From: Candidatus Peribacteria bacterium
GTDB taxonomy: Bacteria; Patescibacteriota; Gracilibacteria; Peribacterales; Peribacteraceae
Direction: 5' to 3'
Assembly: GCA_023245935.1 (NCBI GenBank)
Contig: JAHFJM010000004.1
Location: 13,924-77,923, forward strand
Length of the DNA: 64,000 nt
A model generated the notes under the pieces. It saw only the letters and a list, made by a program, of their open reading frames with translations. It was not told where the DNA came from and did not search any database. This document shows, one piece after another, positions 329 to 51,827 of the stretch (the first letter of the stretch is position 1; each line of letters begins with the position of its first letter). The translations under genes were made by a program, and so were the position numbers.

Positions 329-405
329 TGGTGGGCGAGGGTGGAGTTGAACCACCGACCGCAGGTTTATAAGTCCTGAGCTCTAACCAACTGAGCTACT
401 CGCCC
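329..405 (-). tRNA. tRNA-Ile, anticodon UAU (CCA encoded)
   Basis: The reverse complement is GGGCGAGTAGCTCAGTTGGTTAGAGCTCAGGACTTATAAACCTGCGGTCGGTGGTTCAACTCCACCCTCGCCCACCA and folds into a cloverleaf by hand. The 7-nt anticodon loop is CT-TAT-AA. The 3' half resembles bacterial tRNA-Ile. There is an A31/A39 mismatch. Confidence 0.8.
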
Positions 406-2354: not shown

Positions 2355-3179
2355 ATGCTTCACTTCGCAGTCGCCGGTGTTCCTCACTCTACTCCAAAGC
2401 CTGGAGGAACGGTCGAAGGTTTGAAGCATGCGCACTCGCTCGGGATCACCGCGATGGAGCTCGAATGGGTGCAGCAGGTACCGAAGAATCCTGAGCGAAT
2501 GCTGGAGATCCGGAAAACTGCAGAGTCACTCGGGATGTATCTGACGTGTCACGCGCCGTATTACATCAATCTGAATTCGCCTGATCGTGAGACGCTCGCA
2601 GCAAGCAAGAGACGCATACTTCTTGCACTGGAAATGGGCGAGATCGCAGGGCTGCATTCCGTCTGCGTTCATCCTGCGTTCTACCTTGGGATGGATCCGA
2701 AAGTTGCATTCGAGAACGTGAGACGCGCAGTGAATGACATCATGAAGAACAAGCAGAAGCTTTTTCCAAATGTGAATCTGGGACTCGAAACGATGGGCAA
2801 GCCGACGCAGTTCGGAACACTGGAAGAAGTCCTGAAAATCAGTAAAGAGTTCGGTATCTACCCGACAGTAGACCCCGCGCACATGCATGCGAGAACGAAC
2901 GGACTGGTCAATTCGACGGAAGAGTGGGAAGAGATGCTGGACCTATACGAAGCGCACCTTGGGAAAGGTGCACTGAAATCCATGCACATGCACTTCTCCG
3001 GAATCGCGTATGGTCCGAAGGGCGAGAAACATCACCTGCCGCTGCTTGAGAGCGATGCGAAGTGGAAAGATTTCCTGAGGGTATTGAAGAGGAGAAAGAT
3101 TGCCGGAGTGGTCGTGTGTGAGTCACCGCTTCTGGAAGCGGATACGGTGAGGATGCAACAAACATACGAAAAGATGTAA
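2355..3179 (+). CDS. Endonuclease IV-like / AP endonuclease family 2 TIM-barrel protein
   Basis: The pattern MLHFAVAGVP..GITAMELEWVQ, HAPYYINLNS, VHPAFY and HMHFSG resembles archaeal-type endonuclease IV / xylose-isomerase-like barrels. ATG is at 2355. Confidence 0.6.
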   Translation: MLHFAVAGVPHSTPKPGGTVEGLKHAHSLGITAMELEWVQQVPKNPERMLEIRKTAESLGMYLTCHAPYYINLNSPDRETLAASKRRILLALEMGEIAGLHSVCVHPAFYLGMDPKVAFENVRRAVNDIMKNKQKLFPNVNLGLETMGKPTQFGTLEEVLKISKEFGIYPTVDPAHMHARTNGLVNSTEEWEEMLDLYEAHLGKGALKSMHMHFSGIAYGPKGEKHHLPLLESDAKWKDFLRVLKRRKIAGVVVCESPLLEADTVRMQQTYEKM

Positions 3180-23021: not shown

Positions 23022-23561
23022 TTAAACAGTCATCACCTCCTTGTCTTTCTGCTTCGCCGCTTCATCGATCTTGCCGTTTGCGAGGTCGACGAGGTGTTGC
23101 AATTCCTTCTGTACGCGTTCTTTTTCGTCTTCTTCCGCAATTTCCTTCGCCTGGTCGTTCGCCGCTTGGCGATCCTGACGAATTCTGATCTTCGCCTGCT
23201 CCGAGAGCTGACTGACGACCTTCTTCATTTGAATTCTGCGCTCTTCGGTCATCGGTGGAAAATTGAGACGAATGACGATGCCGTCGTTCACGGGATTCAC
23301 GCCGATATTCGCAGCCTGCAGCGCTTTCTCGACATCCCCGAGCACCGACTTGTCCCACGGTTGAATCACGATCGACCGAGCGTCTTGCACGGAAATGCTC
23401 GCAACCGCCTTCAACTCCATTCGCTGACCGTACGCTTCGACGGTGACATGCTCGATGAGCGATGCATTCGCTCGTCCGGTCTGCAATTTGGAAAATTCAG
23501 CATGAAGATGCTCGATCGTCTTCTGACTGTGAGCGGAGAAAAGTTCGAGTGAGGGATGCAT
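23022..23561 (-). CDS. frr: Ribosome recycling factor
   Basis: This 179-aa protein has the full RRF pattern MHPSLE...LQTGRANASLIEHVTVEAYG......A.ISV.DARSIVIQPWDKS. The reverse complement of ATG is at 23559-23561. Confidence 0.95.
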   Translation of the reverse strand: MHPSLELFSAHSQKTIEHLHAEFSKLQTGRANASLIEHVTVEAYGQRMELKAVASISVQDARSIVIQPWDKSVLGDVEKALQAANIGVNPVNDGIVIRLNFPPMTEERRIQMKKVVSQLSEQAKIRIRQDRQAANDQAKEIAEEDEKERVQKELQHLVDLANGKIDEAAKQKDKEVMTV

Positions 23562-23575
23562 AGAAGAGGAGTGTA

Positions 23576-24280
23576 TTAATCTTTCACTATAGTACCTATT
23601 TTTTTTCCAAGAGCCGCATCCAGCAATGCGCCCTTCTTTGAAAAGTTGAAGACGACGATCGGCAGATTCTGTTCGCGGCAGAGACTGAATGCCGATTGGT
23701 CCATCACCTTCAGGTTTTTCTCGATCACTTCCTGAAATGTTACGCTGTCGTACTTCTTCGCATTCTTGAATTTGTTCGGATCTTTGTCGTAAATCCCGTC
23801 GACATTCGATGCCTTCAGAATGACATCGCACTCCAGTTCGAGTGCACGGAGCGCTGCCGCAGAATCGGTCGTGAAGTACGGATTTCCCGTTCCTCCCGCG
23901 CAGATCACGATTCGCTTCTTCTCCATGTGCCTTTCCGCCCTGCGACGAAGGTACGGCTCGGCAAGTTGCGGAACATTGATGGCCGAGCAGACACGCGTCA
24001 CTGCGCCCAGTTTCTCGATGGCGGATTGCAGTGCGACGGCGTTCATGATCGTTGCAAGCATGCCCATCGCATCGCTCGCCGTGCGCTCGATGCCGCTCTC
24101 CGTCGTATCGCGGTAGCGCCAGATATTGCCGGCACCGATGACGATCACGATCTGAATCCCCTCCTTCCACACATCCACGACCTGCGAGGCGATCGCATGC
24201 AATTTTTTGTAATCGAAACCGAAACCGTCGGCGAGTGCTTCACCGGAGATCTTGAGGAGGACACGCTTGTAGTTTGGCAT
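23576..24280 (-). CDS. pyrH: UMP kinase
   Basis: YKRVLLKISGEAL, VIGAGNIWRY and ICAGGTGNPYFTTDSAAALRA are present. Confidence 0.95.
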   Translation of the reverse strand: MPNYKRVLLKISGEALADGFGFDYKKLHAIASQVVDVWKEGIQIVIVIGAGNIWRYRDTTESGIERTASDAMGMLATIMNAVALQSAIEKLGAVTRVCSAINVPQLAEPYLRRRAERHMEKKRIVICAGGTGNPYFTTDSAAALRALELECDVILKASNVDGIYDKDPNKFKNAKKYDSVTFQEVIEKNLKVMDQSAFSLCREQNLPIVVFNFSKKGALLDAALGKKIGTIVKD

Positions 24281-24833: not shown

Positions 24834-24910
24834 TGGTGCTCCCGGCAGGACTCGAACCTGCGACCAACAGGTTAGAAACCTGCTGCTCTATCCACCTGAG
24901 CTACGGGAGC
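24834..24910 (-). tRNA. tRNA-Arg, anticodon UCU (CCA encoded)
   Basis: The reverse complement is GCTCCCGTAGCTCAGGTGGATAGAGCAGCAGGTTTCTAACCTGTTGGTCGCAGGTTCGAGTCCTGCCGGGAGCACCA. The anticodon loop is TT-TCT-AA. Confidence 0.9.
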
Positions 24911-24932: not shown

Positions 24933-27900
24933 TTACGAACGTCTCAGGAATCTCCTCCTCGCAAGCCCAATGCCGGCTGCTGCGCCGGTGACGATGAAGA
25001 TCACCATACCCGGACCTTCCTGTGACCGCGCTGGAGTCGGAACTTTCGTCACTTGATCGAAAGCATCTGCAGAGCTTCGGACCCCTTGCGGAGGAATCAG
25101 CGTTCCGACAACCGGAGACGCGGGATGCACCGCTCTCCTGCAGGCGTGATCGCACCCGTCACCGTCGAACGTGTCTCCGGTGTCACACTCCTCATTCACC
25201 GCGACGACTCCGTCGCCGCAGTACGGCAGCTGGCAATTGTCGAGACACCGCGTCGATGCATAGTTCCCGTTGTTGATCCCCGTGTCGCACTGCTCGTACG
25301 GTGAATCGATGACGCCATTGCCGCATTGCGGAACCCTCACCACTCGGCAGAGTACCGTGCAATGCGAAGAAGGCTGACCGTTGAGAGGTCCATCGTCACA
25401 CTGCTCACCGGATCCGCTGTTGATTTGTCCGTCACCGCAGGTACCGTTTTCGACCTTGCATTGCGCGCTGCAACCGTCTCCATCGATGGCATTCGAATCA
25501 TCACACTCTTCTCCCGCATCGATTGCTCCGTTGCCGCAAGTGGTGACCGTCAGGATCTGACAGGTAGTCGTGCAGTTCTGATTGATTTGTCCGTTGAGAG
25601 AGCCAAGATCACATTTCTCCCCCGCTTGCTGTATTCCATCACCGCAGTAGGCAATACTCGAAGCAGGGTACTGATTCTCGCTGGAAGATTGCTGGAAATT
25701 TTGCGAAGGATTTGAGGGGAAACTCGCGATAAATTGACTCGAGCTCGAGGTATCTTTCAAGCTTTGGCAGCACACCTCCGACTGCGAACAATTGCCGAGG
25801 GTCTGAGAGTACGGACACTCCTGGAAGGGAACGCAGGAAGAACCCGTGGGGCAGGTCAGATCACTTGAACTGCTTGAACTCGAGGAGGAATCGAGAGAAC
25901 TTGAGGAGCTCGGCACGGCACCCTGGCAACACACTCCGGTATCCGAACAGGCACCGACTGTGCTCTCCGGCGTGCATTCGTAATAGTTGACGCAAGCGGA
26001 ACCGCCCGGGCAGACGGAATCCGGAACACTCGATGATGAGGACTGCGATCCGCACACCGCGGGACAGGACACTCTCGAATCCCAACATGACCAGCTGCCA
26101 TCCGGACAACAAATCGCTTTATCTTCGCATGCAGGCTTGTTTCCAATGCTGCAGGCTGGAGAGAGAGAACTGGAACTTGAGCTCGAATTTTCACTGCTCG
26201 AAGAAGAACTTGAGGACGAACTGCTGAACGAGGAAGAAGAGGAGCTGCTCACACTGTTGACACTTGAACTGGATGAAGAACTCGAGGAGGGAACAATGGG
26301 AGGGAAGGTGGACGTGCTGTTGCAGGTGTACACCATTGCTCTCGACAGGGAAACGAATCGTACGCAGCCCTGTCCGCAGCTCACCGGCGTGGTTGCCCAG
26401 TGAATGTACTCGGGGAAAGAAACAGACGTATCCTGGCAGAGCGGTTCAGAGGGCGAAGCAGTCATTGCGATCGCATCAATATATTCCTGCCTGTCTTTGT
26501 CCGTGAGATCGGCCGGATCGAAGGAGTAATAGTCGGGATAGTAGGTGCTGTTATAACCGCCCAGTGACGTACTGCTGCGCGTGCATGTGCCCGAAATCGC
26601 AAAGGGACTGATCGAATACTGAACGCCCTGCCATGTGCAGATGTGATCCGGTCCATCCATCGAAACAGGCTGCCATCCGATTTTTGGGAGAGCCTGTGCA
26701 GTGCAGACAAACGGATTCACGTGTCTGCACGCAATGTCGGGGCTCTTGCATGTAGTCGCAAATCCTCTTCCTCCAAGAGACACGAATCTGGCACAGTTTG
26801 GTCCGCAGCTCACAGGCGCAGTCGCCCAGCTGACATCGTGATTGAATGAGACAACGGAACCCGAGCAGGCCGGGGGGGAGCTTTGAACAACATTGAGAAT
26901 CAGATTTTTCATTTGAGTTCTGTCCGGATCCGTCGCATCATTTTTGGCGAAGCTCATGAAATCGGGAACCGTGGGAGGCGTACATGTGCCTGCTTCTTGA
27001 AAGGGATTGAGTGTGAAACGTTTTCCAGTCGCAGTACAAGCGGCATTCGGTCCGTCCATCGAGACAAAATCAACATTGTGCGTGCTTTCGCGGATGCACC
27101 CGATCGGATCGATGGCGGTGCAGGACGACGTGATGTCGCCTCTCAGGATCGATGATCCTCCCGAAATGGCATCTGTGAAACTCCTGATCAAACCGGTCAC
27201 CCAATGCCACACGCCGCTGCCACCGGTTGAAACGGACGAGTTGGAAGTTCCCGGTATCAAGGACCCGAGAAGATTTCCTCCAAGCGTCGAGCTGCTTGCA
27301 CTGTCAACGGCAATTCCATTCACGGCAGGATCCCAGCACATCCAACTGCCGTCGCCGCAGCAGTATGCGTACGCATCGCCGGTGCAGACCGGGGCAACGC
27401 CCTGACATCCTGCGCCGTCGATGAATGAAGATGACGAAGAGGAACTTGAAACACTCGATGTGTTTTGGCAGCAGACTCCGGTCTCCGAACAGACATCAAT
27501 GGTTTGTTCCGGCGTGCATTCGAAGAAGTCGACGCAGGAAGAGTCTTCGGGGCAAGCAGATTGCTCACTGGAAGAAATGCTGCTCTCGCTTGAAGCGCTT
27601 GAACCGTTGTTGCAACAAACGCTGTCGAATGAGCAGGCATCACCGGTATTGTCGGGAGTGCAATCAAAGAAATACTTGCAGGAAGATCCGGACGGACAAC
27701 TGCTGCTCGTGACGCTTGAAGACAAGCTGCTTGTATTGGAACTGACCGACGAACGGGAAGAAACTGCGGAACTTGCGAGTGAAGAACTCGCACTGAATCC
27801 TGAGCTTGCAGAACCGGAACGACTGCTGCTCACACTCGAGCCGGCAGAGAAACTGGAAGAAACCGAAGAACTTGAAACGCTTGATGTGTTTTGGCAGCAG

Positions 27901-30900
27901 ACTTCGAGCGACGAACACTCGCCCACCGTGTGATCCTGATCACAATCGAAGAAGTAGACGCAGGAAGAATCAGCGGGACACCCCGCACTGCTTGAACTAT
28001 TCGAACTCATGCTGCTCTGTGATCGTGAGGATACGACAGAAGATTTCGAGGAACCAACGGAGCTTTGCACGGAGCTCGTAGAAAGGCTGGATCCCGCAGA
28101 ACCGGAACGAGAACTGGAAACGCTCGATGATGTGTTTTGGCAGCAGACTTCCAGTTGAGAACATGCGCCAAGGGTCTGTTCGGGATTACAATCGAAGAAA
28201 TATTTGCAGGAAGAATCGGACGGGCATGCTTCGCTGCTCGAACTCATGCTGTTCTGTGATTGTGAAGAGACAACCGAAGATACCGAACCGGCGGAGCGAC
28301 TGGATCCGGCAGAACCGGAACGGGAGCTGCTTGAATTGGATCTGATCGAAGAAATGGAAGAAACAGAGGAATTCGATGATCCTCCACCGGAGCAAGTACC
28401 GGGACACTGAAGTGTCAGATCCTGACAGGACCAAGTGCCGTCCGGACAGCAGAAGAGCGTGTTTTGGCACTGCGGCTTCGTTGCATCGGAACAGAAGCCT
28501 GCATCAGAACTTGAGGATAGGGAGGAAGAATTTCCGGAAGAAGAATTGTTGGAGGAAGAAGAACTCTTCAAAGACGAACGCGAACTGCTGCGAGAACGGG
28601 GAGAGCTTGAGGAAGAGCAGTACGTAAACCCGGCGACTGCAGCACGGAAGTCACGAGACAGAGCATCCTTGTCTGCAGCGTACCGTGCGTCCAAAGCAGA
28701 GAGCCCGGCTTGGATCTCCGTAGGCACACGTGTTTTGGGATCGATCCCCCTGGCCTGCCAGTAACCGACATCGACTTTGTACAGAACATACACGCTGTTG
28801 ATCGTACTGTTATAGGCAGTGTCCAATGCTGTGCGAATGGTTCCATAGTCCTTCGTCATCGCGACGATTGAGACGCACGCATTCGGAAACGTATAATGCT
28901 CGACCGGACAATTCGCGGGGAATGCGCCAATTGCGGTAAGAAAGTCGCGAGAGAGAGCGGCTGTATCCTGAGCATACTTTCCATCCACAGCAACAAGCAC
29001 CGTCTGAACATCCGCAGGCAAACGTGTTTTGGGATCGATCCCCCTGGCCTGCCAGTAGCCGACATCGATTTTGTACAGAACATACACGCTGTTGATCGTA
29101 CTGTTATACGTATCAGTCAGTGTTTTTTTCGCAGCGGCAAAGTCAGTGATCGAATCGATAACGGGTACACACTCGGTCGGAGGAGGGGGAGGCGGAGGGC
29201 AACTGCTCGATGGGAAGGCGGCAACCGCGGCACGGAAGTCACGATTGAGAGCCGCTGTATCTGCAGTGTACCTTGTGCTGAGAGCCGCAAGAGCAGTCTT
29301 GATCTCTGCGGGCAGAAAGAATTCCGGATTGTTGCGATTCTGAACGCCGTAGGTGGCATAGATGGAATTTGCATTCGTGCTGTACGCATTTGAGAGCGTT
29401 TTCGTTTCTGCGTTGTATTCCTCAGTCATCGCAACAACGGACACGCATGAATTCGTAAACGTATAGCTCTCCACGGGACAATTCGTCGGGAATGCGCCGA
29501 TAGCTGCAAGAAAGTTGCGAGAGAGAGCAGCTGTATCTGCGGCGTACTTCTTATCCATCGCATCGAGCGAAGCCTTGACCTCTGCGCTCAGAAAGAATCT
29601 TGGATTGTCGCGGTTTTGAACACCGTAAATGGCGTACACATTGTAGATTGCGGTGTTGTAGGTACTGGCAAGCGTTTTGCTTGCTGCAGCGTAGCTGGCG
29701 ACTGAGCTTGCGATAGGAACGCACTCGGTTGGCGGAGGGGGAACAGGACAGTCTCCGGGAAGCGTGGCGAGTGCAGCGTTCAAATCATGAGAGAGCGCAT
29801 CCTTATCCGCAGCGTACTTGCTGTCCACGGCGGCGAGTGCTGCATCGACCTCTGCACCGATGAAGATTCTTGGAACATGGTCTGCGTACGTCGCAGGATT
29901 ATAAGGATGGTAGATGGCATACAATTGCAGAATCGAATTGCGGTATGCAGTGTCCATCGCTTTGCGCTTTTCAGCGTAGACACGCATCATGTCGACCGCC
30001 GACACTCCGCATGTATCTGGGAACACAGTGCTTTGTGTGGGACAATTCAGAGGAAACGCAGCGAGGGCTGCAAACAAGTCATTGGAGAGAGCAGCCGTAT
30101 CTGCGGCGTACTTCCCGTCCAACACCGCGAGGATGGCATCGACCTCTGCACTGATGAAGATTCTTGGAACATGGTCTGCGTACGTCGCAGGATTATAAGG
30201 ATGGTAGATGGCATACAATTGCAGAATCGAATTGCGGTATGCAGTGTCCATCGCTTTGCGTTTCGCACCGTACTCACTCATCGAATCGACAACTTGCACG
30301 CAAGTATTCTGCGGAGAAGCGACTCCTCCCGTGAGATCTCCTTTCAAGGTGTCACCCGCTCCATTGAAGATGCTTCCAAAGAAATGCAGAACGCTTTTGC
30401 CAAGATCGATGATCCACTGCATCAGGCCTGAACCGGACTGATTCGATGCGAGCGCTGTTTTGTGACCTCCGAAGAGCAAGTTCCCTCCTAGGATTGATCC
30501 CCCACCGGGAGCCTCGTCGACGATGAGACCGTTCACCGAAGGATCGAAACACATCCAATTTCCGTTGCCGCAGCAATATGCATACGAATTGCCGGAACAC
30601 ACGGGCTCTGCGTCGCCGCACCCGGTAATGCTGGAGCTGAGGCTGCTGGCCGAAGAACAAGACTCCGGACCGCAGGAGATCACGCAACCATTCGCACCGA
30701 AAACCATCGAGGAAAAAGTACATCCGGGTCCCGGGTCGCAGACGAGACATGAGGAAGATTTCGAAGAACTGGACACCTTCGAATTGTTGCTATTCGCTGA
30801 CGAAGATGAACTGGACGGAGGATCGGTACAATCCCGATTCAATGAATTCCGCGCCGTGATGTAGTTTCGATGCAAGGCATCCAGATTGGCTAGGTAGGTA

Positions 30901-33900
30901 TTGTACAGAGAAGTGCGTGAAGTTGCGTAGTCTCTGTCCAGAGCCGCACGGGCAGCAGTGAAGGTGCGATACAAAGCGTCGTTTGAGGCGGCGAAAGTTC
31001 GGTCCAGGGTATCGCGGGCGGCGGTATAGTCACGAGTGATGATCGAGCGAGAGCTTTGATAGCTTTTCTCCAAGGTGGCGCTCGATGCGAGGTACGTGTT
31101 TTTGAGCGTCGCGAGAGTGTTTTGGTAGATCGTGAGCCTCGAAGCGGCAGTCGAGGTGACATAGGTCTGGTACGCTGCATTGATCGCATCGATGTAGTTG
31201 GTTTCCAGCGTATTCCTTGACGTTTGGTACGTACTCAGAAGAGCATTGAGCGACGCAGTGTTCTTGGTCTCGAGGGCATTGCGCGCCGCCTCGTGCGACG
31301 AAAGCAATGCATTGCGATCGGTATTGTATTTGGCGAGCAAAGCGTTTCCGGACGTTTCGTACGCAGTCGTCGCATCATCCCTGGACGCATTGTACTTGGC
31401 GTCGAGGGCGGCAACCGCTGCAGCATAGTTTCGGTCGAGGGCAGCGAATTGATCGCTACAATCACCAGGCTCGGAGCTTGCGGAAGAGCGGGAAGAAGAG
31501 AGTGAGGACGAGGACGAAGGACAAGGCAACGCCTGGAAAACTCCGTCGCAGTAATATCCGTCCTCTTGGCTCGAAGAGGAGGAAGAACCGGAAGAGACGG
31601 GCTGGCATGAAGCGAATGCGCAGTTCGGTCCCGTGCGAGCGACGTAACTGCCATCGGGACACTGCAAGACATCGAGCTCACATACCTGCGGTCGGCTGCT
31701 TGAGAGAGAGGAAGCGGAGGAGAACGACGAAGGCGCTGACGAAGAGAGCGAAGAAGAGGAAGGCTCCGGAATGCACTGCAAGTTAAGTTCTGCGAGTGCA
31801 GTATTGTAATTACGGTCAAGCACCGAGCGTGTGGCAGTGTATGACGACCGCAAGGCATCATACGAGAGTGCATACTCGTTTTTAGCGCGAACGCGTGAAA
31901 TCTGATACTCACGGTTTAAAGTGCTCAGCGCCGTTTGCCATTCAATGCGCGCGTCATCGAAGACACTATTGACCCAATGGGTACCTAGCTGGCTCGAATA
32001 CGCGTAGTATCCATGGTACTTTTTGTAGAGTGCATTCGTTGATACAGAGTACTCATTCTGGATGCGAGCAAGCGTTTCATCGTACGTCTTCTTCCCATCC
32101 CTCAGCGCAGCCTGGTACTCGCTATCGAGTTGAGCACCCTTCGCCTCGTAGGTTTTCGTGAGTGCCCTCGACGACACAATGTTCTTGCTTTCCAGCTGAC
32201 TGCGAATCGAGGCGTAGATACCGTTCAATTTCCGTACCAAATCATTGTACTGCCAGACTAAAGTCTGACTCTCTGATTGATACTGAATACCAAGAGCATG
32301 CTGAGCATCGGAGTATTTCCTTTCCAAAGCATAGAGCAAATTACCATACTTCGTTTTGAGCTTATTTCGATCAGAGCTGTACTTGTAACCGAGTTGCCGG
32401 ATCGTGTAGGCATTGCCATCCGAAGCATCGAGGGAAGCAAGGTAGCTCGCCGTCAGTGCGTCAAACTCCGTTTTGTACTGCGCATTGAAGGAATCACGCG
32501 AGGCAGTGTACTGCTCGTAGAGCGTGATGAGCGATGCGGCAAGCTGACTGTCCATGGCATCTCTGGAAGCGACAAAGTTGCTGTCCAGCTTTGCAAGCTC
32601 CGCTGCTTGTTTGCTCTCCATCGCAGCGAGTGCGTCGTCGTAGGGACGTTTCAAAGCGGCGAGCGCTGCTTGGTACTCCTTCTCCAATGCAGCAGCGGAA
32701 GCAAGGTAATTTTTGTAGAGATTCGCCTTCCATGTCGCAAAATCCCCGAGGGAAGCAATCGCAGTATTGTAGGCACTGCGCAACGCTGCACTCGCAGCAG
32801 TGTATTCGACCTGCAACGCCGCAACCTTGGCTTTGTACCTATCGTATAAAGCTGTTCTTGCGATGGGGTAATCCCGATCGAGAATTGCAAGCGAGGTGTT
32901 GTAGTCACGGAGAAGATTGGCAAAGAGCACTGCGTATTTTGCGTCCAGTGCGGCAATCGCTGCCGTGTAATCGCGCAGTAACGCAGCGCGCAGAGCATCG
33001 CATTCTTCTTTCGTATAGTGCGAACTGCTGGAGCTTGAAGATCGCACAGAACTTGCAGAGCTTGAGGAAGCAACAGAGCAGGTAACATCGGCTATGCATG
33101 CTCCGGCAGCGCACACACCGGAGCCGCACGCTGTCGGATCGATGGCTGTGCACTTCGTTCCTTCGTTCACATAGCAACTGCCGCCATTCAAATAGGATCC
33201 CTGCGGACACTGCCCATTGATTGCGCTGACCGTGCAGCTGACGACCGGGGAGGCCGATGAAGACGTGAGAAAATTCGCACATCCTCTGGCATCGTACGTG
33301 CAGTACTGACCGACTTTGCAGCAGTGAACCGGACCACCCGTGCAGGTGATTTGATCGAAGGCACACGCCTGCGGTGCACACTTGCCACCTGAGCAGTTAT
33401 TGCTACAGCAGCCCGGAGTCATCGGCGTCACGAAGCCGTCGTTCATACAGCATGGACCGGCAATTGCAGGACAGGCAGCTCCGTCCTGCAAGCAAAGACC
33501 GGCACAGAGCGGGACTCCTGTCGGACAGATTCGACTGGATGAAGAAGAGAAGGTTAACCCGCATGCTGCAGTACAGGCTCCAAGAGTGTCAAACACCGGC
33601 TGCCCGGAACAGAGCGAGGAATTCGACTGCTGCATGCAAGTGGGAGGAGCGTGCTGCAGGTGATCGCAGCAGTACACGGATTGAGTCGGCGTAATGACAG
33701 GTCCGCAGAGTGTGACGTTGCTTGCCAAGGCGGTTGCACAATTCTGCGTCGCAAAGTACGTGCCTGACTTCACCGCGCATGCCGACGACGTGATAAGTTC
33801 ACATGCATGTGCGGAGCAACATGCAGAGAGCGGACAGTCTGCATGACAGGAGTCATTGGTTTCTCCGGCATCGCAAATTCCATTCTGGTTGCATGTGGTG

Positions 33901-34208
33901 GACAACGGACATTCAGCCGGGCAGAGAGCATTCGTCTCTCCGGGTTCGCAGATGCCATTCATATTGCATGCTGTTCCGCCCGTACCGCATCCCTGTCCTG
34001 CGCAATCGGAACAGCCGCTCGTGCACTCCTGTGCCGAATCGCAGACACCGTTTAAGTTGCATGTAATACTGCATCCGGGCGTTCCGACGATACAGCCCTT
34101 CAGTTTTGAAGGATTCCGCAACACATTCGATTGCAGAAGAACGATCGTCATCACGAGCCCGAGAAGCGCACCGATCAGAAGCCTCAGGGGGAACTTTATT
34201 GGCATCAT
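24933..34208 (-). CDS. Giant (3,091 aa) Cys-rich, Ser-tract-rich modular cell-surface protein with N-terminal signal/anchor and C-terminal TM + Arg-rich tail
   Basis: This is a single uninterrupted ORF with the N-terminus [25 protein letters not shown]. It has internally repeated modules (see the repeat features) and myxo-type Cys repeats. The C-terminus is [27 protein letters not shown]. All other-frame ORFs inside it are low-complexity shadows. Confidence 0.85.
   Translation of the reverse strand: [3091 protein letters not shown]
25137..25646 (-). repeat. Five myxo-type cysteine-rich repeats (CG[DN]G...E.CD.G..N......C...C), aa 2855-3024 of the giant protein
   Basis: An example is [27 protein letters not shown]. 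This is the pattern of the Myxococcus cysteine-rich repeat (myxo_disulf_rpt / DUF4215-like). Confidence 0.75.
25767..26012 (-). repeat. 6-Cys knot modules K5-K6 (aa 2733-2814)
   Basis: The modules are [29 protein letters not shown] and [29 protein letters not shown], with spacing C-x5-C-x5-C-x8-C-x5-CC. Confidence 0.8.
27468..28226 (-). repeat. 6-Cys knot modules K1-K4 separated by Ser-rich linkers (aa 1995-2247)
   Basis: The modules are [87 protein letters not shown] and [29 protein letters not shown]. Confidence 0.85.
28617..30302 (-). repeat. Six tandem ~95-98-aa repeats (aa 1303-1864) arranged as three pairs
   Basis: Each unit starts with C(V/G)..(V/A) and ends with ..FP..CP. Pair R1/R2 shares a 125-nt DNA block (29842-29966 vs 30136-30260, 1 mismatch). 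Pair R5/R6 shares an 87-nt block (28728-28814 vs 29022-29108, 2 mismatches). Both blocks are offset by exactly 294 nt. Confidence 0.85.
30828..31460 (-). repeat. Hendecad (11-residue) Tyr/Ala repeat region B (aa 917-1127)
   Basis: Aromatic residues lie at 928, 939, 950, 961, (972 H), 994, 1005, 1016, then 1028, 1039, 1050, 1061, 1072, 1083, 1094, 1105 and 1116. Confidence 0.8.
31773..33011 (-). repeat. Hendecad (11-residue) Tyr/Ala repeat region A (aa 400-812)
   Basis: Tyr lies at 414, 425, 436, 447, 458, 469 and 480, then at 501, 512 and 523. F545, L556, Y567, Y578 and Y589 follow. Y621 to Y731 are spaced by 11 with one gap, and Y768, 779, 790 and 801 complete the series. The motif is roughly (L)D..Y..A..AL. 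Confidence 0.85.
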
Positions 34209-34286: not shown

Positions 34287-35615
34287 CTATGGCCTGCAGC
34301 AAACTGTCGGTCCAAAATTGCCGGGTGCGCATGCACCTGCAGTCTGCTTCGAGCTCGGACACATCGCGGTGACTCTGCATGCATTCGGGGAACTGCATGG
34401 CGGAACACAACACACCTTGCCGCCGGTACATGAGTCATTGGTCCTCCTCGCTATGGGACACGATGCACTTGTTGCGCATGCATTCGGAGAAGCGCACGCC
34501 GTCACCGGGTCACAACACACCTTATTGGTACCGGAACATGCCCCTGTTGTGCGGCTCAAGGCCGGACAGAGCATAGTCGTTAGACATGTATTCGGAGACT
34601 GACATGTCGGAGCGCGACAGCAGACCAACTGCGGACTGCTGGTGGGACAGGCAACTCCCGGCATCCGTCTTGATACTGGACAGGAGGCAGGATTTTTACA
34701 TGAATCGGGGAGACCGCATGATGTACAGCAAATCGTGCCTGTGGGACATGCGCCACCCGTCTGGTGTGACAACGGACATTGGCTCGTCGGTGAACATAAA
34801 TTACCGGAGGCACATGCTGCTGAAGCAGAAGAGGAAGGATTGGATGATTGCTGAGAAGAAGGCGATGAACTGCGTCTGGAAGATCTTGAGGAAGAACGTC
34901 TGGAGGACCGAATGGAGGAATTGGCACTGGAACCTCCTCCACCCCCCCCTCCACTACTACTGGAACTTATGGAAGACTGTCCGGAGGAATTGGCACTGGA
35001 ACCTCCCGAACCTCCACTGCCTGAAGAACCGCTGGAGCCACCGGAACCCGCACTGCCGGAGGAACCAGTGGAACCGCTGGAGCCACCGGAGCCGCCTGAG
35101 CTGGAAAAGGCAGGACATAATGGATCGGGGAGAGTAACCATAACGCATAAATTGAAAAAAAGGTCACACGTGCAGTGCCCCATTCCTCCTGCAGGTTGGC
35201 AACCATTGTTACAGATCTGCATATTGCTCACTTGTCCAATGCATGATGCATCTGGATTTGGAGCGGTATTGCAGCCAGAACTTGAAGATGTGCTCATGCT
35301 TGAGGAATTTGAGCTGGCAGATGCACCGCCACACACTCCCGGATGTGCAGTCTGTGCTGCTGCACACGTTAATTCCCCTGGGAAGAAATTTCCCAGTGCG
35401 GTCGTACAAGCAGTCGGGGTCATTACACCGATACAGTGAGGTGTTGGCACCGTGGAACAACAGGCAGCGGTCGGGGGAGTGAGTGCCATTCCCTTCACAT
35501 CACTATTCACTCTAAACCAGAGCTGCATCGCAAGAACAATCACCAACAGAACTGCAGGAACAACGATGGCTGTGAAACCAATGATATTGGAGGAGAACTT
35601 CTTGGGATGCTTCAT
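34287..35615 (-). CDS. N-anchored Cys-rich surface protein (442 aa) with Gly/Ser tract and five 6-Cys knot modules
   Basis: The N-terminus is MKHPKKFSSNIIGFTAIVVPAVLLVIVLAM. The GS/S tract spans aa 171-266. Five C-x5-C-x5-CP-x8/9-C-x5-8-CC modules span aa 268-440 (nt 34296-34814). Confidence 0.75.
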   Translation of the reverse strand: MKHPKKFSSNIIGFTAIVVPAVLLVIVLAMQLWFRVNSDVKGMALTPPTAACCSTVPTPHCIGVMTPTACTTALGNFFPGELTCAAAQTAHPGVCGGASASSNSSSMSTSSSSGCNTAPNPDASCIGQVSNMQICNNGCQPAGGMGHCTCDLFFNLCVMVTLPDPLCPAFSSSGGSGGSSGSTGSSGSAGSGGSSGSSGSGGSGGSSANSSGQSSISSSSSGGGGGGGSSANSSIRSSRRSSSRSSRRSSSPSSQQSSNPSSSASAACASGNLCSPTSQCPLSHQTGGACPTGTICCTSCGLPDSCKNPASCPVSRRMPGVACPTSSPQLVCCRAPTCQSPNTCLTTMLCPALSRTTGACSGTNKVCCDPVTACASPNACATSASCPIARRTNDSCTGGKVCCVPPCSSPNACRVTAMCPSSKQTAGACAPGNFGPTVCCRP

Positions 35616-35638
35616 AGAATTGTTTGAATCCTACTGAC

Positions 35639-37267
35639 CTATTCTGCTCTGCACAACTTGCTGCAACCGTCACCGGATTTCGTGTTCTTATCGTCACACT
35701 GCTCACCGGTATCGATCGTCCCATTGCCGCAGACTGCCGCATGAAGACCGCGGAGCGTGGTGAGGAGGAGAATCAAGTCCTTCCGATCCACGGCACCGTC
35801 ATTATTCAGGTCATTTCTGAGATTTTTGATTTTCATGTCCTGGAACATCATCGTGATTCCCCTGTACATCTCGCTGTTGCTTAGCACACCGCTTCGATCG
35901 ACGTCGAGAGCGGTCAGAATACGAGCGACTAAGGGAGCGATTGGAGCTACGACGAGCGGAGGAGGCAACGCTACTGCAGTGCAAAGGGGAAGAAGTGGTG
36001 ACGGAGCCTTGCACAACCAAGGGAACGGCGGCGGTCCCGGTGGTGGGTGGAGAGGGCAATTACCGAAATGATGCGGACAGTAGTAGTACGCCTCAAGTAC
36101 GCCATGATCCCCGGCAATAATGCCCGCGTCCGGTCCATCGCATTTAATGTACTTTGCCGGTGTCTCGTTGACGCCAATGCACGTGCCCGGTCCTCCGCAT
36201 GTGTTTTCACAAAGTGTCTTAAAGCTGTTCATGTAGGGACCAAGAATAGCGCAGTCGATGGTGATCGGTGGCGTGTTACCCGGTGGAAGTGGAGTCGTAG
36301 GTGGGGGAACTTGTGGCGGATAGCCGGGATAGCCGAGTGCGACCGTGCACCTCTTTTGCATACAATTTGCACTGCAGCCGTCTTGGACAACGGCACACGC
36401 TCCTGTACCGGGGCAGTCTGCAGCGACGCTGCACTGCTTCCCTAAATCCGGAGGACCATTCGGACAATGCTTTCCATTGTCACAGACTTCCGGTGCAGTG
36501 ACGATTCCGTCTCCACAAGCGACGGTGCAGACACTGGTGGAAGTAGCGAGTGGAAGATTTTCACAAGACCAACCGTTCTGAATATTGCAGGCTGCAGTAC
36601 ACCCGTCTCCATTCGTGTTGTTGCCGTCGTCACAGGCTTCATCGTCTCCGCCACCCGGAGCATTGTCTTGGCCATTGGCATCTCTGTATCCGTCTCCGCA
36701 TGATTCGGTTTTGCAAATGTTACTGCAGCCATCTCCGGAAACGGTATTCCCGTCGTCACACTCCTCCGGAGCCACTGTGGCATTGTCTCCACAGGAGCCA
36801 ATCGGTACGCATGTAGTGCCAACGCAGACAGTAACTCCCGGGTTACACATCGGTGGAGTGCAAGCAGACACGCACGTTCCTGATAAGCACGTTCCACAAC
36901 AAGGAGGCTTTTCGGTGGAAGGCATTGGTCCGACGCAGCAAGCGGTCGTCGCTCCCGGAGAAAGGCAGCTGGTGCTACCGTCAGGTCTGCACGTTGAGGC
37001 ATTTCCACACGTGGGAATCGTGACGTCGGGACACGGTCCAAGGAAAGTGCATATTGCAGGAGAACCAAGACACACCGCCGGCGCAATGCAATTCGATGTG
37101 TTGCAAGCGAACACGCATCCTGTAGATGGACAAACAATGCCTCTCAGAGACGTTGTATTTGAGAAGAGCGATGACTTGATGATAAGAACAACCACCAAAA
37201 GAACGGTCGGAACTACGAGAGCTGTGACACGGATAGCAGTGGATGAGTGCTTCGAGAAATGCTTCAT
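35639..37267 (-). CDS. N-anchored Cys-rich surface protein (542 aa) with myxo-type Cys repeats and a dockerin-like EF-hand pair
   Basis: The N-terminus MKHFSKHSSTAIRVTALVVPTVLLVVVLII is paralogous to the neighbour. The repeats CGDNATVAPEECDDGNTVSGDGCSNIC, ACDDGNNTNGDGCTAAC and CGNGTIDTGEQCDDKNTKSGDGCSKLC are present. The loops DVDRSGVLSNSE and DLNNDGAVDRKD lie at aa 455-497. Confidence 0.75.
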   Translation of the reverse strand: MKHFSKHSSTAIRVTALVVPTVLLVVVLIIKSSLFSNTTSLRGIVCPSTGCVFACNTSNCIAPAVCLGSPAICTFLGPCPDVTIPTCGNASTCRPDGSTSCLSPGATTACCVGPMPSTEKPPCCGTCLSGTCVSACTPPMCNPGVTVCVGTTCVPIGSCGDNATVAPEECDDGNTVSGDGCSNICKTESCGDGYRDANGQDNAPGGGDDEACDDGNNTNGDGCTAACNIQNGWSCENLPLATSTSVCTVACGDGIVTAPEVCDNGKHCPNGPPDLGKQCSVAADCPGTGACAVVQDGCSANCMQKRCTVALGYPGYPPQVPPPTTPLPPGNTPPITIDCAILGPYMNSFKTLCENTCGGPGTCIGVNETPAKYIKCDGPDAGIIAGDHGVLEAYYYCPHHFGNCPLHPPPGPPPFPWLCKAPSPLLPLCTAVALPPPLVVAPIAPLVARILTALDVDRSGVLSNSEMYRGITMMFQDMKIKNLRNDLNNDGAVDRKDLILLLTTLRGLHAAVCGNGTIDTGEQCDDKNTKSGDGCSKLCRAE

Positions 37268-37362
37268 ACAATTATCTTCATCCTAAAGGTTGCGCACTTC
37301 CTGAAGCAATACGATCTTCTCAGAATTTGGTTTTTGGAATTTTTCGTCTTACACTGCCGTCC

Positions 37363-38883
37363 ATGATCAGAAAAAGCACATCAGACGAGAAAAAAAAACC
37401 GTCCCACGTGTGGCTGTATGCGTTGTTCGTCCTCGTGACGTCGTTCTTCACGTACATGTACCGCTACGACTTCCCGCCGAATCCTTTCTGGGATGAGCCG
37501 TACCACATCGTCTCCGCTCAGAAGTACCTGAACGGAGTCTTCTTCATGGAGCAGCATCCTCCGCTTGGGAAACTGTTCATCGCTCTGGGAGAAAAGATCG
37601 TGCACGGAAATGCACGGAACGATCAGTTCCTGACGACCGACTACGCAAACAATATTCCGAACGGTTTCAACTTCGCGGGATACCGACTCTTCCCGACACT
37701 GTTCGCGTGGCTCACTGCACCAGTGCTCTTCTTCATCTTTCTCTTCATCACGGGAAGCAGTCCCCTCTCCGCACTCCTTTCTTTCCTCTACGTCTTCGAC
37801 AATGCAGAGATCGTCCACAGCCGCGGCGCGATGGTGGACAGCACACTGACGTTCTTCGGAATGCTCTGCGTGCTGCTCTTCCTCCATCTCCAGCGAAGAG
37901 AAAGGAAGGTCACGCTGAAGAAGCATTGCATTCTCTCGCTTCTCCTCGGCGTATCGTTCGGGCTTGCAATGGCGACGAAAGTCATCGCACTCATCTTCAT
38001 CCTGCTCTTCCCGCTGATCATCCTGCGCCTGCTCCCCGATTGGAGAAAAGTCACGCTCTTCTGTGTTCTCAGCATGGTAGGAATGATGACAATGTACGTC
38101 AGTGTCTGGCAGATTCACTTCTCACTCGGGAAGAGAGTCGTGCCCGAACTCCCCGATAACGGGTATTACCAGGCATCGAGCGAGCTGAAGACGATTCTCA
38201 GTTCGCATGCGCAGAACACATTGTCGTCATTCCCCGTGATGCTTCGCGATCACCTGCTGTTCGCACCGCACTACAACAGAGGAGTGCCGCGTCTCGACCT
38301 GTGCAAGAAAGATGAGAACGGAAGCCCCTCGTACTTCTGGCCGTTCGGGGCACGGTCGATCAACTATCGCTGGCAACAGGAGAATGAGAATGCGTATCGC
38401 TATCTCTACCTCGTGAGCAATCCCGTCGCATGGGGGCTTGGGCTGCTTGGCATTTTATTGACTGCCGTTCTTCTGATCGGCTCACAACTTTTCACAGTCA
38501 AAGAAAAACTGCAGCAGCCGTTTCTGCTTCTGTCGTTTTTTGGCATCTACTGCTCATACATGATTGCAATCAGCCGCATCACGCGTGTGATGTACCTCTA
38601 CCACTATTTCCTGCCTCTCCTGTTCAGCTTCATTCTGTTTTCGCTCGTCCTCATCAATATCCGAACCATCGGACGGTACAGAGTCACCGATGATCGGCGC
38701 ATCGTCTTCATGACGATTCTCGGTCTTCTGATCTTCGGTGCATTCCAATTCATGAGGCCGCTCACCTATTACGAGCCGCTGACCGACAGTGCATTCAAGA
38801 AACGAGCAATCGTGACCATGTGGGAATTGACCTGTGTCCGTTGCCAGAAACTCAGTTGGCTTGTGGTGCCGACCGGGAATTAG
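37363..38883 (+). CDS. Dolichyl/polyprenyl-phosphate-mannose protein O-mannosyltransferase (GT39, PMT family)
   Basis: The loop-1 DE motif (FWDEPYHIVSAQKYL), the HPPLGK motif and about 10 TM helices are present. The start is set at the ATG at 37363 (MIRKSTSDEKKKPSHVWLY...). The gene is divergent from the 542-aa gene across a 95-nt spacer. Confidence 0.8.
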   Translation: MIRKSTSDEKKKPSHVWLYALFVLVTSFFTYMYRYDFPPNPFWDEPYHIVSAQKYLNGVFFMEQHPPLGKLFIALGEKIVHGNARNDQFLTTDYANNIPNGFNFAGYRLFPTLFAWLTAPVLFFIFLFITGSSPLSALLSFLYVFDNAEIVHSRGAMVDSTLTFFGMLCVLLFLHLQRRERKVTLKKHCILSLLLGVSFGLAMATKVIALIFILLFPLIILRLLPDWRKVTLFCVLSMVGMMTMYVSVWQIHFSLGKRVVPELPDNGYYQASSELKTILSSHAQNTLSSFPVMLRDHLLFAPHYNRGVPRLDLCKKDENGSPSYFWPFGARSINYRWQQENENAYRYLYLVSNPVAWGLGLLGILLTAVLLIGSQLFTVKEKLQQPFLLLSFFGIYCSYMIAISRITRVMYLYHYFLPLLFSFILFSLVLINIRTIGRYRVTDDRRIVFMTILGLLIFGAFQFMRPLTYYEPLTDSAFKKRAIVTMWELTCVRCQKLSWLVVPTGN

Positions 38884-41761: not shown

Positions 41762-42904
41762 TCACCCCTCTCCAGCCGATGGAGAGGGGCTGGGGGTGAG
41801 GACCGTCTCAAAAACCGCATGCAAGTCCTTCGCCCTCTCCTCAGGTGAAAATCTTTTCCGTGCATCTTCCCTCCCCTTCTCCGAAAGTTTTTGACGAAGC
41901 TCCGGAGAACCGAGCGCTTCGACAATTGCACGCGCGCAGTCGGTTCTGTCACCTGCCGTACAGACAAGTCCCGTTTCGTGATCTCTCACAATACTCCGTA
42001 GACCCGGTGCATCGCTTACGATGACACACGTCCCGGCGAGCATTCCCTGCGCCGCTATGAGACCGAAGCCTTCGAGAAGCGACGGCACGACAAGCACCGT
42101 CGTTGCTGCAAGTTCACGGTACATCGAAGCATCGTCGGTGTGCCCGAGCAGAGTCACAACGTGGGTCAGATTTTTCTCAAACAGAAATTTTTCCAGTGCA
42201 TCTCCGATCAGATTTCTTCCGATCAATCTGACTCTGATGCTCGGATGCGACACTCGAAGAATTTCAATTGCTTTCAGCAACGTCCAAATGCCCTTTCGCT
42301 CCTCAAGCCTTCCGATGAAGAGAATCGTCGCGGGATCTCTTCTCTGTAAAGAATTGTTTGAGGCAGCCGTTACAGCATTCTCGATCACGCACACTTTCGA
42401 TTTCGGAATGTCATACCTCTGTACAAGGAAATCTGCAGTGTCTTTCGAAACGCAGACGATGCGATCGGCAAGTGCGTACGTTCGCTTCTCAAGTTTTGAC
42501 ATGAACTTTTTCCACAGACATTTGAAAAGTGATCCGGAGAAAACAATCTCCGCTTCCTGCAGGTACGTGTGATGCGCGGTGACAACAAGAGGACACGACG
42601 GCTTTCGAAGCAAAAAAACTCCACCCGATCCTGCGTGAACATGAAGAAGATCGAGACGGTGTTTTATGATAAGCGATGGCAGCCTGAATAAAAGCATCAG
42701 GGAAAACAGAGGACAACCGCCTGACTTCTTCCACCGTGAAGCGGCAAGTGAACTCACGCGATCATCGGCGTTTTCGCTCGGAGAAAGTGCAATGAGCGTA
42801 TCCTCCGGAAACAACGTCTCAAGCATTTGCTTCGTCTGCTGTGCAACAATCCCCAGCCCTCCAATCGGAGGGCTGAAATCGTAGGTGAGGATTCCGATGC
42901 GCAT
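41762..42904 (-). CDS. Glycosyltransferase family 4 (GT-B, RfaG-like)
   Basis: The N-terminus is MRIGILTYDFSPPIGGLG, and the C-terminal motif EGFGLIAAQGMLAGTCVIVSD (E-x7-E type) is present. The reverse complement of ATG is at 42902-42904. Confidence 0.85.
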   Translation of the reverse strand: MRIGILTYDFSPPIGGLGIVAQQTKQMLETLFPEDTLIALSPSENADDRVSSLAASRWKKSGGCPLFSLMLLFRLPSLIIKHRLDLLHVHAGSGGVFLLRKPSCPLVVTAHHTYLQEAEIVFSGSLFKCLWKKFMSKLEKRTYALADRIVCVSKDTADFLVQRYDIPKSKVCVIENAVTAASNNSLQRRDPATILFIGRLEERKGIWTLLKAIEILRVSHPSIRVRLIGRNLIGDALEKFLFEKNLTHVVTLLGHTDDASMYRELAATTVLVVPSLLEGFGLIAAQGMLAGTCVIVSDAPGLRSIVRDHETGLVCTAGDRTDCARAIVEALGSPELRQKLSEKGREDARKRFSPEERAKDLHAVFETVLTPSPSPSAGEG

Positions 42905-43022
42905 GTGGAAATAGTAGCATGTAAGAGAATGTTGACTTATAACGATTTTCATTCAATATGACCAAGTTGCTGCCGATCTTTACATCACCGATGTTCGGGA
43001 TGGAGAAAGGTGCTTCTTATGA

Positions 43023-51728: not shown

Positions 51729-51827
51729 TCAGTACTGCAAAGAAGACAGTGCAGGCAGCAGTGCACCTAAAATAATCGCAAGAACTCCTGCGATGGCCAC
51801 GCCGCGAATGAGGGAACGTGTTTTCAT
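51729..51827 (-). CDS. Possible 32-aa hydrophobic peptide (MKTRSLIRGVAIAGVLAIILGALLPALSSLQY) translationally coupled to the PKD gene
   Basis: Its ATG overlaps the PKD-protein stop as ATGA (reverse complement at 51824-51827). It has a single TM-like segment and is too short for the ORF track. Confidence 0.3.
   Translation of the reverse strand: MKTRSLIRGVAIAGVLAIILGALLPALSSLQY

Follow-up and report, generated by a model that had tools for sequence, protein, structure and literature searches.

The DNA analysed here is a 64,000-nucleotide stretch of contig JAHFJM010000004.1 from a Candidatus Peribacteria bacterium (the window). It carries housekeeping genes (DnaK, Mur ligase, pyruvate kinase, RsmH and RRF), eight scattered tRNAs and, at 24933..34208 on the minus strand, one uninterrupted open reading frame (ORF) of 9.3 kb, made up of 3,091 codons and a stop. 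This giant ORF is a genuine gene for a 3,091-residue protein, which, judged from its sequence, is likely a membrane-anchored giant surface fibre of a Peribacteria/Peregrinibacteria bacterium of the Candidate Phyla Radiation (CPR) displaying swappable domains. Its building block is a cassette in which an opening bracket (W) and a closing bracket (P) enclose a variable cargo. A preliminary description of this DNA, made from the letters and their translation, had already laid out the modules; the 3,091-residue frame that it reported is borne out by translation with zero internal stops, and every string that it quoted lies at the residue given (W1 1196, W2 2267, P1 1906, P2 2686). The map is as follows, with residue numbers (aa) and the evidence for each entry, including E-values of module hidden Markov models (HMMs).

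24933..34208 (-): whole gene for the 3,091-aa, presumably surface-exposed modular protein; uninterrupted ORF, positional orthologues in five syntenic loci
34119..34208 (-): N-terminus, aa 1-30, with a signal peptide or a signal anchor; hydrophobicity maximum (Kyte-Doolittle) over residues 4-30
33069..34097 (-): head rich in Cys, aa 38-380, with three CN.NG.C units; 52 Cys in the segment ending at residue 379
31773..33011 (-): hendecad, predicted helical stalk A, aa 400-812; rows of 11, end cysteines C403 and C812
31521..31685 (-): small Cys units between Ser tracts, aa 842-896; 4+2 Cys
30828..31460 (-): hendecad, predicted helical stalk B, aa 917-1127; end cysteines C917 and C1127, one Gly, no Pro
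30657..30749 (-): 6-Cys unit, aa 1154-1184; Cys positions
30318..30623 (-): W1, opening bracket of cassette 1; HMM Whead 5e-24 and Wtail 4e-24, aligned with 10 other W modules
28611..30317 (-): cargo 1, six R98 repeats, aa 1298-1866; alignment, AlphaFold2 model and BLAST against stalk A
28389..28610 (-): Ser tract (aa 1867-1904) and P1 (aa 1905-1940, seven Cys), closing bracket of cassette 1; P HMM 1e-19
27462..28229 (-): array of knots K1-K4 set within Ser-rich linkers, aa 1994-2249; six-Cys spacing, K HMM 1e-16 to 1e-18
27123..27413 (-): opening bracket of cassette 2, W2 with head and tail, aa 2266-2362; Whead 7e-24, Wtail 2e-25
26289..27122 (-): cargo 2, D1 and D2, aa 2363-2640; 16 Cys in total, D1 and D2 42% identical across 127 aligned residues
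26049..26288 (-): poly-Ser (aa 2641-2684) and P2 (aa 2685-2720, seven Cys), closing bracket of cassette 2; P HMM 4e-20
25761..26015 (-): K5-K6 knots, aa 2732-2816; alignment and K module HMM
25137..25646 (-): five myxo/DUF4215 Cys-rich acidic repeats, aa 2855-3024; TIGR02232 E 4e-17, regular-expression positions
24936..25061 (-): C-terminal VPTPA...(E/T)GPG motif, transmembrane (TM) helix and RRRF tail, aa 3050-3091; Kyte-Doolittle peak at residues 3065-3083

Relatives were gathered by a DNA-pattern scan with the W alignment rather than via protein collections, and comprise one genome locus (L001, from a Candidatus Peribacteria metagenome-assembled genome) and eight metagenome loci. That the long ORF or its repeat numbers might be an assembly artefact, or the gene a decaying pseudogene, is exceedingly improbable, given 3,091 stop-free codons in DNA of 53% GC, a conserved Cys framework preserved in every module and full-length, unbroken orthologues (2,486 and 2,170 aa). 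In four of the relatives (L002, L003, L004 and L007) the contig nevertheless stops, at its 3' end, within the giant gene, and truncation also affects L005, L006 and L008, so this region is evidently hard to assemble. Within the window gene, however, DNA repeats reach at most 85% identity, over 239 nt, and all six Ser codons occur in scrambled order in the Ser tracts, which makes assembly collapse and replication slippage unlikely. An exact look-up of the 3,091-aa sequence returned no record.

The only hydrophobic segments of the giant protein are residues 4-30 and 3065-3083. An N-terminal motif, LGLVMxIVxLQ(S/T)N, is common to the window protein and L001, and the other relatives likewise start with a hydrophobic segment. 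The possibility of an N-terminal lipoprotein, raised by LKGC at residues 36-39, was rejected on inspection: the motif lies at too great a distance from the hydrophobic core, its -2 residue is atypical, and L001 does not conserve it. The Cys-rich head has no Pfam match and is partly common to L001, as judged by eye; its CN units start at residues 50, 81 and 106, and two of the three fit exactly the pattern first proposed for them, the first being degenerate. The giant protein is of an extracytoplasmic type in its composition and, after the N-terminal signal, strings together small modules that are either disulfide-rich or helical, with Ser-rich linkers between them. The linkers account for 17% of residues, 534 residues lying in intervals with at least 50% Ser; these form 14 tracts of 20-75 residues each, irregular and broken up by Cys modules.

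At the other end, the region of residues 2848-3074, which holds the myxo repeats, is 55% identical to L001, and the arrangement of C-terminal motif, TM helix and RRRF is kept in L001 and L006. The myxo repeats were rightly placed in the C-terminal region from the outset: TIGR02232 matches in four stretches (61.7 bits against a cut-off of 20.8), a membership that covers aa 2855-3024 only. Pfam DUF4215 (PF13948) reaches 21.4 against a threshold of 27. The last 64 residues, searched against curated NCBIfam sorting signals at E<=10, matched 0 families, so that no signature of the sortase, exosortase or archaeosortase kind (LPXTG, PEP, PGF or MYXO-CTERM) is recognised there; the tripartite look of such a signal (VPTPA..GPG, TM, RRRF) is present and conserved.

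Module similarities and the cassette rule

The two W modules (W1, 1196-1293; W2, 2267-2360) share about 44-46% identity (E 4e-24), and P1 and P2 about 42-50%, depending on the alignment (E 2e-11). Knots K1-K6 all have the spacing C-x5-C-x5-C-x8-C-x5-CC and are pairwise 39-69% identical, while the six R98 repeats are 35-71% identical, with a single Cys at either end of each. In a composition-preserving shuffle control, 0 of 2000 shuffles reached the observed score, with z = 30.6 for W, 16.3 for P, 35.7 for D and 17.1 for K (full range 7 to 36). The homology of W1 with W2 and of P1 with P2, as put forward in the preliminary description, stands on these figures; its six 98-residue repeats are indeed six in number, although their period is actually 92-98 residues.

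Module HMMs built from the window and L001 sequences were then mapped onto all related giant ORFs. A cassette consists of W (a 5-Cys head, with or without a tail), cargo, poly-Ser, P (7 Cys) and, optionally, K knots. W1, for example, comprises a W-head (aa 1196-1232) and a tail (aa 1233-1297), the tail being a stretch of ~65 residues with LGGxLL, an amphipathic helix and L(K/R)GD(L/I)T. The window protein holds two cassettes and its relatives carry 3-4 each. In all relatives W-heads and P modules alternate strictly (26 cassettes in 9 ORFs, several of them near-duplicates), whereas K knots number from 0 to 6 after a P and some P modules have none. From these maps the cassette emerges as the iterated building block of a small family, not as a one-off duplication.

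The brackets also follow a cysteine rule. W-head and P belong to one minidomain family (hhalign probability 98.7%, E 4e-16, 29 columns), a homology absent from the preliminary description; P is set apart by an additional terminal C-P-x-x-C. Across the window and the 9 related ORFs a complete W-head always has 5 Cys and a P always 7, one W-head cut by a contig end (L005) showing 3; the cargo in between always has an even number (4, 6, 8, 10, 12, 14, 16 or 22). The other inter-linker segments of the window protein are all even as well: 52 in the head, 2 in each stalk and each R98, and 6 in each K knot. With odd W-heads and P modules around even cargo, it follows that, if the protein is exported, W-head and P would not be closed disulfide units on their own, but W, cargo and P together would be. 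A P-like unit ahead of the first cassette of L001 (aa 365-397) has 6 Cys (C-x6-C-x6-CC-x6-C-x9-C), one additional downstream Cys evening out the count of the core-like unit.

Two bracket subtypes can be distinguished. In the first, a W-head with the ~65-residue tail always goes with a P of type CSxxTKPxC-x5-CC; in the second, a tail-less W-head runs straight into poly-Ser and goes with a P of type C(S/T)GxxPxC-x6/7-CC..GWxCWNP. Within non-redundant cassettes, W and P are of matching subtype in 13 cases out of 13; at junctions between one P and the following W, P(n)-W(n+1), this is so in only 3 of 8. Distances between W-heads track those between P modules in a Mantel comparison (r=0.82 for 20 cassettes; r=0.48, p=5e-4 for 13 cassettes from four proteins). 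Within the long-W subtype the two are uncorrelated (r=-0.03), and the covariation claim is therefore confined to the two subtypes. On this evidence, the brackets appear to be inherited as matched pairs.

The nearest relatives of the window brackets point the same way. W1 and P1 share theirs, the L002_1405 cassette: P1 is 62% identical to the P of that cassette (and 59% to P1182 of L001) versus 42-46% to its own paralogue P2, and W1 is 54% identical to its W versus 44% to W2. P2 and the last P of L001 share 68% identity. Because the window brackets are closer to those of other species than to their own paralogues, the two brackets separated before the lineages split, which agrees with the ancient cassette duplication first proposed. 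One could instead suppose that no whole cassette was ever duplicated and that W, P and K, as small modules each mobile by itself, stand in the same order by chance. We regard this as very unlikely: the optional K arrays, the cargo domains that clearly move apart from the brackets and the uncorrelated distances in the long-W subtype would suit it, but alternation without exception in 9 related ORFs, the complete subtype pairing and the shared nearest relative of W1 and P1, as bracket co-inheritance predicts, all speak against it.

What varies between orthologues is the cargo. L002_1405, whose bracket is orthologous to that of window cassette 1, carries an unrelated cargo that is common to L001_1527 and L004_1820. 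The D cargo, present twice in the last cassette of the window protein, occurs as a single copy in the first, tail-less cassette of L006/L007 (E 3e-41; 46% identity) and again in L009, whose second cassette has a composite cargo that begins with D. Only the window protein has hendecad stalks and R98 repeats, and a hendecad profile found no match in any related ORF outside it. Since orthologous brackets carry unrelated cargo, the cargo has been swapped while the brackets were conserved. The variable part had been described beforehand as swapped between the two cassettes, and orthologues had been named as the place to look; the comparison supports the swap, as the brackets are conserved, their cargo differs and D moves between cassette positions. 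The K arrays would have their own later history: K1-K4 are 56-69% identical to one another and 39-56% identical to K5-K6, and because of this greater likeness the arrays look to have expanded, or been homogenised, after the cassette duplication.

This family is effectively absent from protein collections. The W1/W2 alignment and a 12-sequence W alignment gave no matches among 5.8 billion protein clusters, and cassette 2 (W2, D1-D2, P2 and K5-K6), run with full HMMER against 1.84 billion representative proteins, gave 0. The myxo/DUF4215 repeats apart, none of the modules (W, P, K, D and R98 among them) is credibly matched in Pfam, in NCBIfam or among PDB sequences, all other scores lying far below curated cut-offs, and no match to the whole protein was found among PDB sequences. 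In a homology search with the whole protein, low-complexity candidates predominated, and two DUF4215 proteins were all that came back; a scan of viral contigs with the W and P profiles found none.

Two known Cys-rich folds were considered for the brackets and set aside. Granulin (PF00396) scores 17.4 bits with P2 (E 0.005), below the gathering threshold of 20.9, and P1 has no match; a profile search of the PDB, with 16 P modules and 15 W-heads, brings up no granulin chain at E<=10, and the modules have 5 or 7 Cys, not 12. Hevein/CBM18 (PF00187), a lead from its similar Cys spacing, gave no Pfam match at E<=10 and no PDB match.

The helical parts of the window protein follow another pattern. 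Laid out in rows of 11, the stalks show the hendecad consensus xxxYxxAxxAL, in ~37 rows with three phase slips in stalk A and in 19 rows in stalk B. Their hydrophobic positions recur with an 11-residue periodicity and a 4-3-4 spacing, as in a hendecad coiled coil. The corresponding 11/3 = 3.7-residue periodicity is strong in stalk B (power 5.9 versus 1.8 at the 99th percentile of shuffles); in stalk A the global signal is just near the 99th percentile, being weakened by the phase slips. The rows and the periodicity thus uphold the hendecad stalks of the preliminary description. Stalk A and R98 are weakly related (BLAST E 1.5e-5), and R98 probably arose from the stalk, or the stalk from R98. 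Where the window protein has its stalks, L001 (5552-13012, aa ~150-200) and L004 (aa ~1124-1176) have (G-S-T)n tracts with a weak match to the Pfam collagen repeat; the type of spacer varies by lineage.

Every helical unit (stalk A, stalk B and R1-R6; DNA 28611-33011) has exactly two Cys, at its extreme ends (403/812 and 917/1127 in the stalks), which suggests disulfide-closed hairpins or interchain staples. The R98 array resembles three di-repeats with poly-Pro between them. AlphaFold2 models the R1R2 di-repeat with a predicted local distance difference test (pLDDT) score of 77.6 and a predicted template modelling (pTM) score of 0.67; each repeat has two helices of 30 residues with a short one between them, and its end Cys lie just outside the two long helices. 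In view of this model, the R98 repeats are probably disulfide-closed helical hairpins. Foldseek returned only generic helical bundles for the di-repeat (best E 0.75). Stalks A and B could be either long hairpins closed like R98 or oligomeric coiled coils stapled between chains.

Locus and neighbouring genes

Two further features of the window adjoin the giant gene:

37243..38883 (+): protein O-mannosyltransferase (PMT)-family gene, candidate modifier of the Ser tracts; PF02366 4e-33 and PF16192 2e-15, above cut-offs
34287..37267 (-): two upstream same-strand genes for anchored Cys/Ser-rich proteins of 442 aa and 542 aa; domain scans

The gene order is pyruvate kinase, PMT (divergent), small Cys-rich proteins, giant gene, orf167, RRF and GATase_5. 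Parts of it recur in five loci (L001, L002, L004, L006 and L007), which cover the upstream or the downstream side, and both sides in L001 only. Because the gene order is shared and the flanking proteins are 59-90% identical (63-90% for the housekeeping enzymes), the giant genes of these five loci are best read as positional orthologues in related Peribacteria. The modules of the giant gene are 35-68% identical and differ in content; the locus is conserved and the content of its giant gene is not.

The PMT gene is divergent from the three-gene Cys/Ser-rich cluster and lies next to it in the window, L001, L002, L004 and L007, which are all 5 Peribacteria loci with upstream DNA. In the distant relative L009, a phosphoglucomutase/phosphomannomutase-family gene lies immediately upstream of the giant gene. 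An adjacent PMT gene, Ser-rich acceptor tracts and a hydrophobic signal are what a PMT substrate would be expected to show, and the giant protein has all three.

The 442-aa protein (34287-35615, minus strand) has an N-terminal TM helix, long Ser/Gly tracts and about seven knot-like units (e.g. CASGNLCSPTSQCPLSHQTGGACPTGTICC) that resemble the K knots but fall short of E 1e-3 with the K HMM. The 542-aa anchored protein (35639-37267, minus strand) carries DUF4215/TIGR02232 repeats and, near its C-terminus, an EF-hand/dockerin-like loop pair (DVDRSGVLSNSE ... DLNNDGAVDRKDL); a similar pair is found in the L001 neighbour of the giant gene. These loops hint at calcium-dependent docking. Nearby envelope-related genes, all on the minus strand, encode a GT4 glycosyltransferase (41762-42952), a 691-aa protein with three PKD domains (51824-53899) and a Wzy_C (O-antigen-ligase-like) membrane protein (58657-60600).

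On the downstream side, 23 nt separate the end of a tRNA-Arg(TCT) at 24834-24910 (minus strand) from the giant gene's stop codon. A 382-aa ORF at 23022-24170 (minus strand) has its RRF domain in residues 223-380 only, and in its N-terminal half it shares DNA, read in a different frame, with a 234-aa ORF at 23576-24280 (minus strand) that is probably pyrH, an amino-acid-kinase ORF standing at the corresponding position of L001; the long RRF ORF is most likely an artefact of ORF calling. Lastly, ARAGORN calls a tRNA-Ile with anticodon TAT at 329-405 (minus strand). Bacteria usually decode AUA with a lysidine-modified CAT tRNA, and tRNA-Ile(TAT) is uncommon.

Proposed role at the cell surface

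The prevailing view is that CPR bacteria live attached to other cells, with giant orphan surface proteins as prime candidates for the contact; to our knowledge, those of CPR bacteria are almost entirely unannotated. We propose a model in which the giant protein would be exported by the Sec route and held in the membrane by its C-terminal helix, with the Arg tail inside. During export, the adjacent PMT enzyme would O-mannosylate the 14 Ser tracts, which could then act as stiff, protease-resistant spacers, while the hendecad segments would form rigid helical stalks. The W/P brackets would present exchangeable cargo, namely R98 hairpins and D domains, outward for attachment to other cells or surfaces, and cargo exchange at a conserved locus could lead to a lineage-specific surface specificity. 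The Ser linkers would measure ~130-190 nm if fully extended, and the stalks ~62 and ~32 nm if they are continuous helices.

Several points weigh against such a fibre. No cargo matches a known binding fold, R98 and D having nothing in Pfam or PDB, and D could not be folded by AlphaFold2. The covariation of W and P rests on two subtypes, and the cassettes are not phylogenetically independent. In close relatives, PMT could lie beside the giant gene through inherited synteny, with no functional link between the two. If the N-terminal segment is uncleaved, both ends would be anchored and the protein would form a loop rather than a fibre.

How the brackets hold their cargo is a separate question, to which the odd cysteines may offer a clue. 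In a tentative and, on balance, doubtful proposal, the W-head and P of one cassette dock via a disulfide as a covalent clasp, which would close the cargo into a loop off the backbone of Ser linkers and knots. Each would be a beta-hairpin minidomain with a 5-Cys core, contributing one spare Cys. The clasp, and not the cargo, would then carry the structural continuity, and therefore any domain with an even number of Cys could be swapped in. An AlphaFold2 model of cassette 2, built with window-only alignment rows, has a mean pLDDT of 38.7 and is confident only for the W-head and P (77-86 for the W2 head and 82-85 for P2), both modelled as small beta-hairpin units; the cargo D is unfolded in it, and the model carries no information on W-P contact.

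The spare cysteines of W-head and P might also pair between molecules, giving a covalently cross-linked, glycosylated mesh or sheath like a mucin gel or an S-layer. Odd counts of 5 and 7 suit intermolecular pairing equally well, but equal numbers of W and P, strict alternation and full subtype matching are not required for random cross-linking, and we consider a mesh rather unlikely. Ser-rich tracts broken by small Cys domains do recall gel-forming mucins. Stalk B, with 211 residues, one Gly, no Pro and a single Cys at each end, is also in its favour: as one continuous helix it could not bring its two Cys together within the chain, which suggests interchain disulfides in an oligomeric coiled coil. 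The R98 model tempers this argument, as its end Cys would come close if the long helices pack antiparallel; terminal Cys pairs therefore need not mean interchain bonds.

Should the intramolecular clasp prove true, it would be a previously undescribed 'plug-in socket' for the display of bacterial surface domains and a natural scaffold for protein engineering. More broadly, a 'hypothetical protein' has been resolved into an architecture whose simple grammar can be tested, W - cargo - P with Cys counts that are odd, even and odd, and W, P, K, D and R98 are defined as five new families of modules. A conserved locus beside a protein O-mannosyltransferase is seen to evolve by swapping cargo within fixed brackets. 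The handles gained are searches with the W and P HMM profiles, the cargo as the predicted specificity part, and experiments on disulfides and glycosylation.

Comparison with known systems

Hendecad periodicity is expected for straight or slightly right-handed helical bundles. The stalks share the 11-residue periodicity with the tetrabrachion stalk of Staphylothermus marinus, without sequence similarity, and differ from it in that each is capped by a single Cys at each end. Gel-forming mucins have Ser/Thr-rich, O-glycosylatable domains interrupted by CysD domains. The giant protein likewise alternates long Ser-rich tracts with small Cys-rich domains, and unpaired Cys could serve for cross-linking. 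The likeness is one of analogy only, the giant protein being bacterial, with other Cys domains and a TM-helix anchor.

Fungal Als/Flo/Epa adhesins and actinobacterial PMT substrates combine a distal binding part, a Ser/Thr-rich spacer, a C-terminal anchor and a PMT modifier. The giant protein is similar in layout, and its PMT gene adjoins the substrate gene. It has no sequence homology to these proteins, ends in a TM helix instead of a glycosylphosphatidylinositol (GPI) anchor and has spacers interrupted by disulfide modules, and its glycosylation is a prediction. The Streptococcus mutans adhesin Cnm is an LPXTG protein of small size whose collagen-binding domain is known. Its gene, cnm, adjoins an operon that includes a PMT-family membrane protein and is needed for Cnm modification (PMC5856776). 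Cnm has a threonine-rich region, and its pgf modification guards it from proteolysis (PMC5856776), so that Cnm-pgf is a precedent for an adhesin gene beside PMT-family modifier genes (PMC5856776). Unlike Cnm, the giant protein has no C-terminal sortase motif, its lone match to [LIV]PxT[GASN] being an internal IPGTS at 2318.

A serine-rich repeat adhesin (Fap1, GspB, SraP) was also considered and rejected: a C-terminal LPXTG is missing, and the Ser tracts are irregular and Cys-interrupted, not long regular Ser-X dipeptide repeats. SecA2/SecY2 were not among the genes scanned, and the remainder of the window and of the genome was not searched for them. With the Myxococcus Cys-rich acidic repeat/DUF4215 proteins, the giant protein shares its C-terminal 170 residues, and the 542-aa neighbour belongs to the same comparison. 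Those repeats cover only ~6% of the giant protein, and no cassette module occurs in that family.

The closest known counterparts are the large Cys-rich extracellular proteins of Ca. Peribacter riflensis, of 1,655 aa on average (Anantharaman et al. 2016, PeerJ, PMC4736985). Some are very large and strain-variable (1,219-3,861 aa), with indel variation between strains, and the group has a signal peptide, weak similarity to Myxococcus Cys-rich repeats and a proposed role in attachment (PMC4736985). The giant protein resembles them in being large and Cys-rich with myxo repeats, and it comes from the same bacterial class; the window organism is a different species (~53% GC versus 58.5%). In the passages that deal with them, PMC4736985 describes the Peribacter proteins in bulk, and a module map, the W/P rule, Cys parity and cargo exchange are not found there. 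The general kind of protein is already known, since large Cys-rich extracellular Peribacteria proteins were described in those passages in 2016 (PMC4736985); the cassette rule is new.

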